Both the position numbers and the translations under genes were made by a program. A stretch of 64,000 nt of DNA, taken from an uncultured cyanobacterium. GTDB lineage: Bacteria; Cyanobacteriota; Cyanobacteriia; Pseudanabaenales; Pseudanabaenaceae. The DNA is taken from positions 4,416,001 through 4,480,000 of the forward strand of contig OY969811.1 in NCBI GenBank assembly GCA_963703315.1, in the 5' to 3' direction. The notes below the pieces were generated by a model. That model was not told where the DNA came from. It made no database searches and saw only the letters and a program-made list of their open reading frames with translations. This document shows positions 19,626-25,173 of the stretch, in pieces. Position 1 is the stretch's first letter, and each line of letters begins with the position of its first letter.

Positions 19626-19702
19626 AGATCCCCCCCAGCCCCCCTTAAAAAGGGGGGAGAATTCTCTTCTTCCCCCTTTTTAAGGGGGATTGAGGGGGAT
19701 CT
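19626..19702. repeat. C/G-run REP-like composite hairpin
   Basis: agatccccc...ccccttaaaaagggg...cccctttttaagggg...gggggatct. Confidence 0.7.
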
Positions 19703-19805: not shown

Positions 19806-20540
19806 ATGACCTTGCAAACCGACATTGACAACGCCGCCGCTCAACTCAGAGGCAAAACCCCTCAAGAAGTTCTCACATGGGCGCTCGGTAACTACCAAAA
19901 TATCGCCCTTGCCTCTAGTTTTGGAGCCGAAGATGTCGCCTTGATCGATATAATCGCCAAAATTAAACCCGATGCCCATGTATTTACGCTCGATACAGGT
20001 CGTCTCAATAGCGAAACCTATGACGTAATCGCCAAAGTCCAACAAAAATATCCTCAACTACAATTGCGAATTATGTTCCCACAGGCAGAAGCAGTGGAGC
20101 AGATGGTCAGTGAGAAAGGGATTAATCTTTTCTATGACAGTGTGGAAAATCGTAAGCAATGTTGTTATATCCGTAAAGTCGAGCCATTGGGTCGGGCAAC
20201 TAAAGGTCTTGACGCATGGATTACAGGACTACGCCGTGATCAAACTGCTAACCGTTCGACGATGGAAACTGTTGAATTAGACGGCGATCGCCAAATTGCG
20301 AAGATCAATCCCTTGATTGATTGGACAAATGAGCAGGTTTGGGAATACATTCGTGCTAATGATGTTCCTTATAACGCTCTCCATGACCAAAACTTCCCTA
20401 GCATTGGTTGTGCGCCCTGCACCAGAGCCGTCCAAGCAGGAGAAGATCTGCGTGCTGGTCGTTGGTGGTGGGAAATGAGCAATCAAGAATGTGGCTTACA
20501 CGTCAACAGTGATGGTCAATTGGTAAGAGCAAAAGGTTAA
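19806..20540 (+). CDS. cysH: Thioredoxin-dependent APS/PAPS reductase with Fe-S Cys motifs (APS-reductase type)
   Basis: 'LDTGRL', 'QCCYIRKVEPL', 'SIGCAPCT', 'RAGRWWWE', 'ECGLH'. Confidence 0.93.
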   Translation: MTLQTDIDNAAAQLRGKTPQEVLTWALGNYQNIALASSFGAEDVALIDIIAKIKPDAHVFTLDTGRLNSETYDVIAKVQQKYPQLQLRIMFPQAEAVEQMVSEKGINLFYDSVENRKQCCYIRKVEPLGRATKGLDAWITGLRRDQTANRSTMETVELDGDRQIAKINPLIDWTNEQVWEYIRANDVPYNALHDQNFPSIGCAPCTRAVQAGEDLRAGRWWWEMSNQECGLHVNSDGQLVRAKG

Positions 20541-20588
20541 AAGATAAATGCGGCGCGTTGCGCCGCATTTATCTAATTATGGAGAGCT

Positions 20589-21470
20589 ATGCATAAAGCT
20601 ACGGGGCTACAATATGGCGATTGGGATTTTCAGGGATGGCGATCGCATTATGGATTTTGTCCAGCGCAAAATATTGATCGTAATAAGCCACCGATCCTGT
20701 TAATTCATGGTTTTGGCGCAGCGATCGATCATTGGCGCGGTAACATACCTGCCTTAGCCCAAGACCATGATGTATATGCGATCGATTTACTAGGATTTGG
20801 CGGATCAGAGAAACCAGCGATCGCCTATTCGATCTATTTATGGGTAGAACAGGTGTTGAGTTTTTGGCAAAAATTTATTGGTGTGCCAATGGTGATCGTT
20901 GGTAACTCCATCGGAGCTTTAGTAGCCGCGATCGCCGCCAGTCATCATCCCCAAATTGCGGCGGGAGTCGCTACCCTGAGCTTGCCAGATATTGAGGCTT
21001 TTCAGAACTTAGTTCCCAAATGGCTTCAGCCTTTGGAACGCGCTGTCAAGGCGATCGTTAACGTCTTGCTAGTCAGACCTCTATTCTATCTCTTCCGTCA
21101 ACCTTGGATGATTCGCTTCGTTCTCAAAGCGATCGTTTATAGCGATCATCGCCGTGTGGATGATGAGCTAGTGGAAATCATTGCCAAACCTGCCCGCGAT
21201 CGCCAAGCCGCCTCAGCCTTTGTCAGTCTCAATCGCAGTCTCAATCAACCAAATTATTCACCTAGCCTAACGCAGGCTCTTTCAAATCTACAAGTTCCAT
21301 TATTGATTTTATGGGGTAGTCGCGATCGCTTAATCCCTCCATCAGAAGGTAAGCGCTTAGTCCAATATGCTCCTGATGCCACGCTCATCTATTTGGAGGG
21401 ATTGGGACATTGCGCCCATGACGAAAATCCTGAGATTTTTAATCACGAAATTCTGAGGTGGCTAGCATAA
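20589..21470 (+). CDS. Alpha/beta fold hydrolase
   Basis: 'LIHGFGA', 'DLLGFGGS', 'GNSIG', 'GHCAHDE'. Confidence 0.92.
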   Translation: MHKATGLQYGDWDFQGWRSHYGFCPAQNIDRNKPPILLIHGFGAAIDHWRGNIPALAQDHDVYAIDLLGFGGSEKPAIAYSIYLWVEQVLSFWQKFIGVPMVIVGNSIGALVAAIAASHHPQIAAGVATLSLPDIEAFQNLVPKWLQPLERAVKAIVNVLLVRPLFYLFRQPWMIRFVLKAIVYSDHRRVDDELVEIIAKPARDRQAASAFVSLNRSLNQPNYSPSLTQALSNLQVPLLILWGSRDRLIPPSEGKRLVQYAPDATLIYLEGLGHCAHDENPEIFNHEILRWLA

Positions 21471-21485
21471 GCCCCAAGCATTAAT

Positions 21486-21559
21486 GTAGCGTTTGAGCAT
21501 TTGCGCCACTATTTCTCAACTTCCCACTAAAATCTCCATCTGCAAATGCTCAACCCTTT
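21486..21559. repeat. GTAG-headed REP-like element (copy 1)
   Basis: 74-bp homolog at 35196..35269; arms gagcatttgc / gcaaatgctc. Confidence 0.75.
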
Positions 21560-21719
21560 TAGCTTTGAATTAATCTCACTAGCTAAACCAAACCTTTAGT
21601 TTTTCTTGAGCTTTTTTTATATTCTGGCTTAATATGAGCAGTAACTATTGAATAACTAATTGTTTTTGATAATATTTCAATTCCAAATTATATACGATCA
21701 AAACAAATACTTTTATCGC

Positions 21720-21759
21720 TGTCAAACCTAGACTTATTATTGATTGGGAAGTAGGCGAT
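21720..21759 (+). repeat. Cassette-boundary direct repeat R1
   Basis: TGTCAAACCTAGACTTATTATTGATTGGGAAGTAGGCGAT. Confidence 0.85.
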
Positions 21760-21765
21760 ATGTAT

Positions 21766-22137
21766 TTATAGCTTTGTCTGATGACGCGCTATCTCTAAAA
21801 GCACTTGATCTAGACTTGGTTCAGCGCTGTCTATAATATTCTCTCCATCATGCTTGTGATGTGGAAAAGTAGAAACATTTGCATGGTGAGGAGCGTTATC
21901 ATAGCGAAAAATCATTACCTGATCTTCATTCATGTAGTGATATCGATATTTTATTTTATTCAAGATTTCAACATTCTTGACTTCTACAAAATCTAAGCGA
22001 TGATTATTCTCAAAAATAATTGAACCGCTAATATATCCCTGCAAAATATTGTAGATTTTCTTAGTCAACGAGACAAAACGCACATTAGGAAACTCTTTAA
22101 TAATCCCTTCAAGCTGTGCAAAATACTCTTCAATCAT
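21766..22137 (-). CDS. DUF6516/TumE-like putative toxin
   Basis: 'KYRYHY...IFRYDNAPHH..VSTFPHHKH'; start overlaps upstream gene stop (ATGA). Confidence 0.8.
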   Translation of the reverse strand: MIEEYFAQLEGIIKEFPNVRFVSLTKKIYNILQGYISGSIIFENNHRLDFVEVKNVEILNKIKYRYHYMNEDQVMIFRYDNAPHHANVSTFPHHKHDGENIIDSAEPSLDQVLLEIARHQTKL

Positions 22138-22442
22138 CTTAGTTCGCTAAGCTGGGCTTGATTTTGACAAAGCATTTCATACAATCCCGCCCAAATCATA
22201 AAATCTGCTTCATCTTCTAAAAGCCCATCTGAGAAACTTTTGTAAAACTCAGCAGATGTCATATTATACTTTCTTTCAAAATCATCTAATTCCAGCCGTA
22301 GATTTAGAATTCCCTTTTGTAATTCAGAAACTTGGTAAGCAATAATATTTAGGGCAAATACTTCTGTATTTTTAACTTGGCTAAGGATTTTTTTTAATCT
22401 TCGTTCTGTTTGTGGCTGCACAGATAGCTGAAAATCCAACAT
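22134..22442 (-). CDS. Putative antitoxin (TumA-like)
   Basis: 'LDDFERKYNMTSAEFY...G..EDEADFMIW'; coupled upstream of the DUF6516 gene. Confidence 0.7.
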   Translation of the reverse strand: MLDFQLSVQPQTERRLKKILSQVKNTEVFALNIIAYQVSELQKGILNLRLELDDFERKYNMTSAEFYKSFSDGLLEDEADFMIWAGLYEMLCQNQAQLSELR

Positions 22443-22501
22443 ATTAATCTCTGGCTCCCTATTTGTTAATAAATACTACTGTGAGTATAACAAATAAACT
22501 C

Positions 22502-22546
22502 TGTCAAACCTAGTTCTAGTATTACTTGAGATGTAGGCGATCGCCT
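22502..22546 (+). repeat. Cassette-boundary direct repeat R2
   Basis: TGTCAAACCTAGTTCTAGTATTACTTGAGATGTAGGCGATCGCCT. Confidence 0.85.
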
Positions 22547-22621
22547 GAAAAATGAAGTGACTAGCGATCGCCATGATTTAAAAAAGCTAAAATAACAGCA
22601 CCCCTCTATATTTACTTGACC

Positions 22622-22930
22622 ATGAACGAACTGAAAATCTTTACTGAATACCCCGATCGCGCGATAGAGATCCTCCAAAAAACAATCCGTGCTGAAATCC
22701 TGCGAATGGAACAGGGAAAAAAACAGATAGAACAAAAATTAAAAACATTCGAGCAGAAATATCAAATCTCCTCTCGTGAATTTGTCATCTCTTGGACAGC
22801 CGATAATCTAGAAGGCAAAGACTTAGAATATGTCGAATGGTTTGGTGAATATCGCTGTTTAGAAAATATTACTCAAGACTTACAGATTCTCCTAAGCTTA
22901 CAAAATATTAGTCAAAATGTCAGTATTTAG
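22622..22930 (+). CDS. Putative antitoxin (TumA-like)
   Basis: 'LKTFEQKYQISSREF...DLEYVEW'; overlaps downstream toxin gene. Confidence 0.7.
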   Translation: MNELKIFTEYPDRAIEILQKTIRAEILRMEQGKKQIEQKLKTFEQKYQISSREFVISWTADNLEGKDLEYVEWFGEYRCLENITQDLQILLSLQNISQNVSI

Positions 22931-23303
22931 CTATTTTCAGGACTTAGTTCTTGCAGTTTCTCGGCTAGAAGATTACGGCTTAGCCAAAACAATTACATCC
23001 AATAGCGAATCTCGTCCATCAGGTGAACTCTTTATTAATATCAAAGCAGAGCTAATTGATAACTCTATACTTTTTATTCGAGAATACATTTCCGATCAAC
23101 AGGAACAGATCGAACATTTCAGCTATGCCTACCAATATCAAGCGGCAGATGAAAGCCTAATTTTTCGTTACGATAATGCTGCTCACAAACCACCGCTATC
23201 GGACAAAGAACATAAACACCTACAGAATGGAGAAATCATCGTTTATCCACTCCCAAGTATCGAATTGATAATTGACGAGATTTTAGCTTGGTTAACAACC
23301 TGA
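22917..23303 (+). CDS. DUF6516/TumE-like putative toxin
   Basis: 'YAYQYQ...LIFRYDNAAHK...HKH'. Confidence 0.8.
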   Translation: MSVFSYFQDLVLAVSRLEDYGLAKTITSNSESRPSGELFINIKAELIDNSILFIREYISDQQEQIEHFSYAYQYQAADESLIFRYDNAAHKPPLSDKEHKHLQNGEIIVYPLPSIELIIDEILAWLTT

Positions 23304-23318
23304 TCAATTAGACTTAGA

Positions 23319-23363
23319 TGTCAAACCTAGAGCTAGTATTGATTGGAAAGTGAGCGATCGCCT
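23319..23363 (+). repeat. Cassette-boundary direct repeat R3
   Basis: TGTCAAACCTAGAGCTAGTATTGATTGGAAAGTGAGCGATCGCCT. Confidence 0.85.
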
Positions 23364-23490
23364 AATGCACGAAAAAGTTGGCGAAGGTAAAGTCCTGAAT
23401 TTATCAGGTACAGAAAATAACACGAAGCGCTGAATAATTTATTTCATGTTATCTTCATGGTGGTATCTCCCCGATAGAGCTAAACTCGAC

Positions 23491-25173
23491 ATGAAATATC
23501 TCATAGACGCGATCGCCAATATCTCTCGCCAACTAGTTCCTCGATCTGCGGCTTTAATGATTTTACTGAGTGCGATTGGTGGATGGGCGATCGTCAAGCC
23601 TAGTGAAGCCGCCGAAACTGTCAATTTTCGCTTTAATATTTTTGAAGTCTCAGTTTCCGTTGATGACTTGGAAACCTTTTCTAAAACTGGGGAATTGCGC
23701 GGCGCATTGGATATGGCATCACGGTATATTTCTGCGTCAGATATGGCAACCTTTCGACGGATCTTGACAGAGAGAGCCAATGTTCCCATATCTTTATTGT
23801 CTAGATTTCTCTACACATCTCAAGGAGAAAGATCCCTAGATATTTTAGGAGACTTTATCAAAACAGGACCGACTCTATCAGGTAATCGAGCTATTCGCGC
23901 CGCCGCAGTTTTGGCGACCGCCGATAAGCAGAATGGTTTATCTTTACTCAACTTTTTACGGAAATTCCCCACATCCGATATCTACTTTGATATTCAAGCA
24001 GGACTGCAAACTGTTGGTGAATTAAGTGATTTACTTCAGAATACTCAAAGAACTGTCCAATTGGTCAATGACGAGGCTACAAAACAAGCCACTGCTACAC
24101 CAGCGCCTACACCAATTGAGTTAGCTGATTTACGGGAGAAAGGGAGCTTGCAATGGGATCGCTATAGCCTCAAAGCCCCTGCCCTAAATAATAAATATGA
24201 GATTCCGTTCTATTTATTTATTCCCAAATTTGCTAATACAAATGTAACTAATATTCCTACGATCGTGATCTATCCTGGACTCATCTCGAATCGTGAACCA
24301 TTACTCTATCTTGCCGAGCATCTAGCTTCCTACGGTTTTGCCGTGATCCTAACGGTTTCGCCTAATAGTAGTGAGGAACAATTAGATAAATTGATTATTG
24401 GGGCGGCGACTGAAATTGCACCACCAGAGAGCTTTGTTGAGCGTCCGCAAGATATCACGGCGGTTCTCAACTATCTAGAAAAGTCGCCACAAGTCGATAA
24501 TCCTGCTAGCTCTAAGATTAATTGGAAGAACGTGGGTATAGTTGGTCATTCCTTTGGCGGTTATGCGGCGCTAGCGTTGGTAAGTGATGCCCAGATTCAG
24601 TTTGCAGATTTACAGGAAGCTTGTCAGGGGAAATATAAATGGAATGCTTCGCTATTACTGCAATGTGTAGCTCTAGGATTGCCCAATCAGACCTATAAGT
24701 TAGGAGATCCGCGTATTACCGCCGCGATCGCTGTTAATCCTGTGACTAGTCATGTATTAGGCAAGTCGATGTTGAGTAAAATTACTGCACCGATCGCCCT
24801 AGTAGCAAGTTCCGATGATACGTTTGCCCCTGCGGTCGCTGAGCAAATTGTACCGTTTACATGGTTGACTAGCGCTAATCGCTATTTGGTCTTACTAAAT
24901 CGCGCAGGACATACGGCAGTGACCGCAATTACATCCAGCGATCGCCTGAGTCCTGAAGTCAGCAGTGTGTTAGCAGGACCAAATCCGATCGCCTCACAGG
25001 ACTACCTCAAATTACTAAGTGTGGCTTTTTTCAAAACCCATCTAGTGCAGGAATCTAGCTATGCGAACTATCTGACTCCCGCCTATTTTGCGAACATCTC
25101 AACGCAATCAGCGCAAGTGAGTTTGTTGCGATCGCTCAGCATTGAACAAATCAATGTAGCGATCGGTAATTGA
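23491..25173 (+). CDS. DUF1400-domain alpha/beta hydrolase, exported (start could be 23446)
   Basis: Signal 'SEAAETV', 'SVSVDDLETFSKTG', 'AEHLASYGF', 'GHSFGGY'. Confidence 0.85.
   Translation: MKYLIDAIANISRQLVPRSAALMILLSAIGGWAIVKPSEAAETVNFRFNIFEVSVSVDDLETFSKTGELRGALDMASRYISASDMATFRRILTERANVPISLLSRFLYTSQGERSLDILGDFIKTGPTLSGNRAIRAAAVLATADKQNGLSLLNFLRKFPTSDIYFDIQAGLQTVGELSDLLQNTQRTVQLVNDEATKQATATPAPTPIELADLREKGSLQWDRYSLKAPALNNKYEIPFYLFIPKFANTNVTNIPTIVIYPGLISNREPLLYLAEHLASYGFAVILTVSPNSSEEQLDKLIIGAATEIAPPESFVERPQDITAVLNYLEKSPQVDNPASSKINWKNVGIVGHSFGGYAALALVSDAQIQFADLQEACQGKYKWNASLLLQCVALGLPNQTYKLGDPRITAAIAVNPVTSHVLGKSMLSKITAPIALVASSDDTFAPAVAEQIVPFTWLTSANRYLVLLNRAGHTAVTAITSSDRLSPEVSSVLAGPNPIASQDYLKLLSVAFFKTHLVQESSYANYLTPAYFANISTQSAQVSLLRSLSIEQINVAIGN

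Follow-up and report, generated by a model that had tools for sequence, protein, structure and literature searches.

Repeats flanking two TumE-type toxin-antitoxin pairs in a cyanobacterial genome are decayed pcrA fragments and may mark gene capture near HIP1

A 64,000-nt stretch of contig OY969811.1 (positions 4,416,001 to 4,480,000; here called the window) from an uncultured cyanobacterium of the Pseudanabaenaceae (assembly GCA_963703315.1) holds an array of three short direct repeats, R1 to R3, that delimit two toxin-antitoxin (TA) gene pairs of the TumE-TumA type. The repeats have the sequence of decayed fragments of pcrA, a helicase gene that lies intact 400 kb away in the same genome (G000, 4,565,174 nt; other G-numbers denote the genomes of relatives that were compared). 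The two TumE pairs themselves are ordinary, and the array is neither an integron nor an island that encodes its own integrase. How, then, did pieces of a helicase gene come to separate TA cassettes? With a probability of about 0.6, we propose that they were left behind when incoming DNA recombined with homologous pcrA sequence at one end, its other end being joined in the vicinity of a highly iterated palindrome (HIP1) or directly at it.

Layout of the array and pcrA origin of its repeats

The repeats are 45 nt each, lie on one strand, align without gaps and are spaced by 782 and 817 nt (Table 1); R1 and R3 are 71% and 80% identical to R2. An exact 12-mer of the repeat has four copies in G000, both strands counted, three of them inside the array. 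A profile built from the three copies scores its own repeats at 59-64 bits, the next match in G000 at 37.0 bits and the rest at no more than 18.3 bits, a gap that argues against chance. HIP1, of which G000 holds 8,189 octamers (a cyanobacterial hallmark), is intact in R2 and in R3 (23354-23361); R1 has a truncated form. One gene pair occupies each interval, on the minus strand in the first (cassette 1) and on the plus strand in the second (cassette 2). The toxin 1 stop lies 6 nt from the truncated GCGAT of R1 and 1 nt from the end of the 45-nt R1, and the toxin 2 stop lies 15 nt ahead of R3. The pairs are of one family and strongly diverged (34% identity over 93 aa between the toxins, 29% over 59 aa between the antitoxins). 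An earlier note, made from the letters of this DNA, had described this layout, the HIP1-type ends, the opposed and diverged pairs and their DUF6516/TumE character, all of which stands.

Both toxins pass the Pfam cut-off for TumE (PF20126, 23.4 bits) and are encoded 3' of a coupled partner, the arrangement of TumE-TumA systems; G000 has five TumE genes in all. Both pairs miss the NCBIfam equivalog cut-offs (TumE 77.4 and 47.3 against 90; TumA 36.4 and 27.9 against 100). By family they are predicted translation-inhibiting type II systems. In other bacteria TumE-TumA is an established type II family that targets translation: for six gammaproteobacterial pairs toxicity, inhibition of translation and neutralisation by the partner have been shown (PMC10584680). 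The pairs of the array resemble that superfamily in being bicistronic partner-toxin pairs with a PF20126 domain, and differ in scoring below the equivalog cut-offs and in a toxicity that is predicted only.

The sole other strong profile match in G000 lies inside a 791-aa helicase gene, pcrA (genome positions 4038492-4040867, minus strand). The repeat corresponds to the pcrA coding piece VKPRPSVNWQVGDR, with HIP1 sitting on the GDR codons. R3 and the 48 nt that follow it align with the intact gene over 92 nt (77.2% identity, E 3e-12; 64.5% over 31 aa), and an orphan fragment in G010 likewise continues into pcrA sequence. The pcrA orthologue of G047 scores above the PcrA equivalog cut-off and has a Tudor domain at aa 743-790. 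R2, read in the pcrA frame, carries an in-frame stop. None of the three 45-mers folds better than its shuffles on either strand (z -0.14 to +0.62). The minus-strand TTGACA that the earlier note had pointed out is present, and was rejected as a -35 promoter element: it is used by none of the 13 promoter-like sites found (shuffles 7.9 +/- 3.1), and in R2 the nearest TATACT is 12 nt away, not 16-18. Since the R3 extension aligns to pcrA, the GDR codons coincide with HIP1, a stop interrupts the pcrA frame in R2 and neither fold nor promoter role is apparent, we conclude that the array repeats are decayed fragments of the 3' part of pcrA. The earlier note contained neither this coding origin nor the 48-nt reach of R3 beyond the repeat; it had named a decayed gene fragment as an outcome that would speak against its own proposal, and such a fragment is what was found. 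Duplication of the repeats in place was considered and rejected, as R1 is nearer to the site left of cassette 1 in G021 (35 of 37 nt) than to R3 (31) or R2 (29). R2 and R3 have no clearly nearer partner among the copies compared.

Table 1. Features of the array, its flanks and a second HIP1-bounded unit (window positions unless G000:C1 is given)
Feature	Position	Strand	Remark
R1, decayed pcrA fragment by sequence, reads VKPRLIIDWEVGD	21720..21764	+	ends inside HIP1 at the start of cassette 1
TumE-family toxin 1, 123 aa	21766..22137	-	Pfam PF20126 82.7 bits; NCBIfam TumE 77.4 bits (cut-off 90)
TumA-like antitoxin 1, 102 aa, overlaps toxin 1 start	22134..22442	-	NF045776 E 4e-9, below cut-off
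R2, decayed pcrA fragment by sequence, in-frame stop, full HIP1 22537-22544	22502..22546	+	moves as right end of cassette 1
Cassette 2 left arm, holds second HIP1	22547..22615	+	in G021, G023 and G052 also 3' of the site, ahead of other genes
TumA-like antitoxin 2, 102-104 aa	22616/22622..22930	+	NF045776 E 2e-6, below cut-off
TumE-family toxin 2, 128 aa	22917..23303	+	Pfam PF20126 64.6 bits; NCBIfam TumE 47.3 (cut-off 90)
R3 and 48 further nt, displaced pcrA tail relic by sequence, codons 733-763, Tudor domain start	23319..23411	+
Left flank, alpha/beta hydrolase, outside the element	20589..21470	+	different downstream neighbours in relatives
Right flank, DUF1400 hydrolase, outside the element	23446..25173	+	same other gene adjoins in 13/13 relatives' loci
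~40-nt HIP1-HIP1 unit	G000:C1 974138, 976137, 2731741, 2734378, 2737256, 2738357, 2746717

Orphan sites, exchanged alleles and duplicated gene tails

A model of the site was built from 20 orphan copies and two native alleles and searched in 48 genomes of the genus at E<1e-4. Its 71 matches comprise 46 intact pcrA genes and 25 orphans in 13 genomes; 20 of the orphans match by construction, having been used in the model, and five are new. The orphans form the right-hand border of cassette 1, cassette 2, an McrBC module (five genomes) and several other neighbours. The profile search that the earlier note had called for does recover the repeat at module edges, but traces it to pcrA. Most of the aligned orphan copies carry one base that is absent from the genus pcrA alleles examined, which suggests that one orphan copy spread.

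Cassette 1 DNA was found in 17 of 47 other genomes. All seven close copies have the site at the antitoxin end, the position of R2, and three of the five full-length close copies also have a left-hand site, in unrelated contexts; a distant clade (~74%) of ten genomes has none. Cassette 2 DNA occurs in 20 of the 47, and 19 loci were examined (the small fragments in G005 were excluded from the junction table). Among the 14 with a toxin end, five have a full or truncated site, three its right half only, two traces seen by eye and four none; no left-hand site was found at any of the 19 loci. G006 and G047, both complete genomes, have the two cassettes ~1.5 Mb apart. HIP1 is where many of the alignments end (21754, 22543-22548, 23362-23363); others end within the site.

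Filled and empty alleles were observed at pcrA, at dnaK and at an McrBC array. G006 and G047 have the order pcrA, Uma2, cassette 1, site, GDSL lipase, and in G008, G016, G043 and G058 pcrA and the GDSL gene are 37-250 nt apart, as expected if cargo entered the pcrA end and displaced the old tail. At dnaK, the intact gene abuts the flank that follows the displaced copy of G000 in four of seven loci examined. G001 reads McrBC-site-cassette 1-site-MazEF and G006 reads McrBC-site-MazEF, the interval being 785 nt in the former and 121 nt in the latter. A contig of sequencing run X2 (depth 5, ~98% identical) joins 22544, the last base of the R2 HIP1, to 23338 in the middle of R3, with 40 different letters in place of cassette 2 and half of R3. 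Content changes at the repeats, but imprecisely, as insertion with deletion; neither the G001-G006 comparison nor the X2 contig shows a precise gain or loss that leaves a single site, and no clean excision was seen. What survives of the recombination site proposed in the earlier note is that module content changes there between genomes and that many breakpoints are at HIP1; a dedicated capture site is not supported.

The earlier note had suggested aligning the stretch between the two flanking hydrolase genes across strains; in the relatives examined these genes are not neighbours, and no empty allele between them was found there. The cysH-hydrolase unit usually faces fabH in relatives, an order that differs at window 19806-21470, and the DUF1400 gene has another usual neighbour, presumably a chlP-like gene. 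As the hydrolase flanks have other neighbours in relatives, the locus is a rearranged junction and not an old platform, and the array marks a breakpoint of that rearrangement. An inversion linking the array to pcrA was tried as an explanation: the orientations fit, but the neighbour genes of relatives give no support.

Are such displaced tails peculiar to the array? With the C-terminal part of pcrA as query, 7 of the 401 genomes searched from the class gave a second match. G202, of another family, has a 148-nt tail copy (99.3% identical) 7.6 kb downstream that runs from the GDR HIP1 up to the last codon, where a different stop follows. The copy in G012 (61 nt, 100%) starts just past a second HIP1, that in G294 (212 nt, 90.6%, possibly a tandem unit) starts ~25 nt ahead of a HIP1, and G213 gives a second pcrA-like match at E 5e-4. 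The GDR HIP1 is again the starting point of the tail copy in G011, which was found separately.

Other genes show the same anatomy. We scanned G000 for non-coding copies of pieces of open reading frames (ORFs) of at least 150 aa, up to 25 kb from the parent. Among the 26 copies found, 17 downstream and 9 upstream, every downstream copy is on the same strand as its parent and none on the opposite strand, and 15 of the 17 are gene tails, against 1.1 expected. The parents include narB-, ppsA-, sufD-, gnd- and dnaK-type genes (by Pfam), and further ones that we take to be dnaE-N-, sbcC- and cobN-like. TA or defence-type genes are present in eight of 12 inserts scanned, and in the narB insert a third TumE pair comes last, directly against the displaced tail. 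HIP1 is enriched at the joins: a HIP1-like octamer lies within 6 nt in 8 of the 15 tails (2.5 expected, P about 8e-4), and at the join in six of the seven copies with at least 94% identity. Nine of the 15 stop no more than 3 nt from the stop codon, and the sbcC-like copy differs from its parent at 26 sites, 22 of them synonymous. Independent comparisons, at dnaK (above) and at gnd, point the same way: 5 of the 48 genus genomes have a doubled gnd tail, with three different cargos, and four of the five copies start at or just after one HIP1.

Some further structures were seen at these loci. A ~200-nt segment bounded by HIP1 follows the site in six genomes (L057:4080-4290, L055, L058, L104, L106, L111); its reverse strand, we presume, resembles the C-terminal part of an XRE-type antitoxin. 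The intact pcrA of G000 is followed downstream by a TA-rich zone (G000:C1 4031300-4038480, L132; Uma2 and others) that ends in an internally deleted cassette 2 remnant; this remnant starts at a HIP1, and its deletion joint is HIP1-like. At G000:C1 1016570-1023320 (L162) the arrangement is mirrored: a radical SAM gene has a second copy of its first 106 nt lying 4 kb upstream, with Uma2, HEPN-nucleotidyltransferase and transposase genes enclosed between the two.

A proposed route and its rivals

What route could leave these footprints? DNA from a relative would pair with a conserved gene and bring an equivalent tail together with cargo. A second join to the resident strand, at or near HIP1 in the tail, would restore the gene and push the old tail 3' of the cargo, and survival of the gene would select for events close to gene ends. 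The donor was probably related cyanobacterial DNA taken up by natural transformation (G000 encodes ComEC and DprA), and joining would have been the work of host recombination with no integrase. Each TumE module may have been tied to one pcrA relic and would afterwards have travelled as a unit bounded by HIP1; the shared ~40-nt relic could have served as a short homology joint by which both modules were stacked at a rearranged locus 400 kb from pcrA. TumE-TumA pairs could help such islets to persist. At the join, HIP1 often stands only in the resident gene, which suggests a break there and not a shared microhomology. Judged by anatomy, the loci have the features of homology-facilitated illegitimate recombination (HFIR): one homologous anchor, one short or illegitimate join and the frequent loss of resident DNA.

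A wider reading is more tentative, and we lean somewhat against it: HIP1 might be the working break or join point of a phylum-wide, integrase-free route of gene capture, and displaced tails might be reused as joints, so that cassette arrays grow with neither attC nor IntI. TA and defence islets would then enter behind almost any conserved gene, with joins at HIP1 in its last 30-200 nt that restore the gene.

Several points weigh against entry through a homologous anchor and a HIP1 join. The route is reconstructed from sequence anatomy alone, and HFIR normally gives deletions; partial duplications in Escherichia coli came from single crossovers of circles (PMC3240628). Seven of the 15 tails have no HIP1 near the join, and at several joins HIP1 is present in the gene copy and absent from the displaced one, so that no simple shared microhomology is at work. 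The parameters of the HIP1 test were chosen after the list had been seen; in that list one gene accounts for two hits, and a few entries are likely artefacts of paralogue families. No same-strand tail copy was found in 18 longer stretches downstream of pcrA, the TA-rich zone of G000 among them, nor in the pcrA-GDSL inserts of G052 and G046. Differences between copies fall at third codon positions in 73 of 122 cases, an excess also expected if only the in-gene copy is under selection. Lastly, several unrelated cargos end within ~20 nt left of the site, which chance joining fits poorly; this clustering at the left edge keeps a recombinase alive as an explanation.

Circles, the other main rival, offer another way in, which we regard as unlikely. 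Here HIP1 sites or earlier repeats would be the ends between which a gene tail with its cargo loops out, to re-enter by one crossover in a gene tail or relic. Single crossovers of circularised donor DNA did give partial gene duplications in E. coli (PMC3240628), HIP1-linked plasmid recombination is known from Synechococcus 7002 (as cited in PMC4390886), the copies in G202 and G011 start cleanly at HIP1, and G000, G001, G021 and G056 have the site-cargo-site anatomy that re-entry would leave. Both available allele comparisons are nevertheless replacements of resident DNA and not clean additions, and no back-joint of an excised circle was found in the contigs of four of the eight runs listed, though contigs lose rare forms.

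Could a site-specific recombinase act in trans, either a Xer-like host enzyme or one on an unseen element, with the pcrA sequence as its attachment site? The 25 orphans that border cargo of at least five kinds, the base that most of them share and the left edges of several copies within ~20 nt would suit it. Breakpoints, however, are scattered along and beyond the site (21718-21754, 22543-22548, 23338, 23349-23363), other pcrA tail copies start elsewhere, and about a dozen other genes with unrelated sequences show the same anatomy. As the earlier note had said, the window has no recombinase (no match to PF00589, the tyrosine recombinases, or PF00239, the resolvases); genome-wide, G000 has only a Xer-like gene at 1.754 Mb and a sub-threshold match at 4.368 Mb, with no resolvase. 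A recombinase gene 4 kb from pcrA in G057 was rejected as a candidate, being an orthologue (77%) of the host Xer-like gene, and the G202 insert has a 116-aa ORF with a weak PF07508 Recombinase match. We consider this explanation quite unlikely.

Islands that encode an integrase restore the tRNA or protein gene in which they insert, and a displaced fragment of it stays behind. An intact target and a displaced fragment do surround cargo at pcrA in G006, G047, G011, G012, G202 and G294, in the same direct orientation as in such islands. Here, in contrast, the units examined carry no integrase, measure 0.5-8 kb and involve many target genes with several start points per gene; an own recombinase with one fixed crossover point was not found.

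The repeats could also be passive relics. Tails would then arise by local or target duplication, the fragment would hitch-hike, and single-site alleles would be deletions between repeats. Ten distant copies of cassette 1 and 4 of 14 toxin-end copies of cassette 2 have no site, the site has neither structure nor promoter role, the G012 copy is 100% identical and the G294 unit looks like a tandem duplication. The stops of the tail copies at stop codons (9 of 15), with the G202 copy preceding a different one, the mostly synonymous differences of the sbcC-like copy and the repeated meeting of cassette 1 with a left-hand site in unrelated contexts make this improbable.

An integron cassette array, or a cluster of attC sites lacking an integron integrase (CALIN), is suggested by the gene-pair-plus-repeat layout, the TA cargo and the IntI-family genes (TIGR02249) above cut-off in 23 of the 48 genus genomes, yet it is highly improbable and is refuted on site structure. 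An attC-type site was rejected: the repeats have no hairpin, and a profile of 29 classical attC-like sites (81-88 nt), taken from 18 stretches at intI loci of the genus that served as a positive control, finds nothing in 21401-23500 or in the loci that hold orphan sites or cassettes; it gives two strong matches elsewhere in G000. The 18 stretches contain no full pcrA-derived site (one partial match to its HIP1 end) and no TumE gene, and the best IntI score in G000 is 32 bits against a cut-off of 265. The integron-like cassette platform of the earlier note is thus set aside, given also the imprecise replacements and the distant cassette 1 clade without the repeat. Integrons do seem common in the genus, with integrases in G006, G045, G022, G017, G056, G021 and others (L286-L303), several of them beside attC-like arrays. 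Orphan attC-like sites without IntI at G000:C1 653037-653124, 2747822-2747909 and 2746935-2747018 are possible CALIN remnants.

Known systems, significance and minor observations

Entry through a homologous anchor and a HIP1 join would be a process like HFIR and like C-terminal displacement; by our comparison, restored housekeeping anchors and a HIP1 bias would be what is new. With HFIR as described for competent hosts (PMC3240628) it shares one homologous anchor, one short or illegitimate join, loss of resident DNA and the lack of a dedicated integrase. It differs in that the second join is often inside the anchor gene, so that the tail is duplicated and not deleted, and in that joins cluster at one methylatable motif, HIP1, features read here from sequence. 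In the displacement arrays of Rhs, contact-dependent inhibition and Vibrio cholerae type VI secretion effector-immunity loci, for which HFIR has been proposed too, sequential insertion likewise pushes an old 3' piece downstream, and toxin-related modules are separated by gene fragments (PMC5361080). There the anchor is the toxin gene, whose C-terminus changes (PMC5361080), whereas here housekeeping genes serve as anchors and regain an unchanged end, and the cargo has no relation to them. Integrons and CALINs (PMC4889954) also have TA modules separated by repeats; in the present array the site is derived from coding sequence, has no attC structure and no link to intI, and is exchanged imprecisely.

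HIP1 has been tied to recombination before. HIP1-linked recombination and insertion of SDR5 into HIP1 are on record (as cited in PMC4390886 and PMC5861425), directed cutting at HIP1 has been suggested (PMC4390886), and transformation of Synechococcus 7002 increases when the homology arms contain HIP1 (10.1101/2024.09.10.611283). These reports likewise have HIP1 as a favoured joining or insertion point; they concern plasmids, very short repeats and engineered donors, whereas the cases here are natural multi-gene acquisitions with restoration of a gene tail. The function of HIP1 is still called unresolved (PMC5861425; PMC13756078), and in the papers found a role in gene transfer is supported by engineered transformations and phylogenetic correlation. 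Tail duplications that start at HIP1 would be natural footprints countable in any cyanobacterial genome, making the question directly testable. Titles and abstract openings yielded no description of HIP1-initiated gene-tail duplication or of a pcrA-derived joint, in a search that left out most of the subscription literature. If correct, the proposed route would explain the pile-up of small TA and defence modules without mobility genes behind housekeeping genes. Short repeats between cyanobacterial TA genes should be compared with host coding sequences before they are called att sites.

Other repeats were noted in passing. A palindromic dispersed repeat at window 21470-21570, which we take to be REP-like, has ~30 matches in G000 and also lies left of cassette 1 in G006 and G047. 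Between the fabH-like gene and cysH (window 19626-19702) lies a hairpin formed by a 36-nt inverted repeat, with ~16 matches in G000. The ~40-nt unit listed last in Table 1 spans HIP1 to HIP1, is unrelated to the pcrA repeat and has at least seven copies in G000, one of which follows the displaced tail of the gene at 2737895-2738377. G000 also has a 20-kb insert at genome position 2.76-2.78 Mb.

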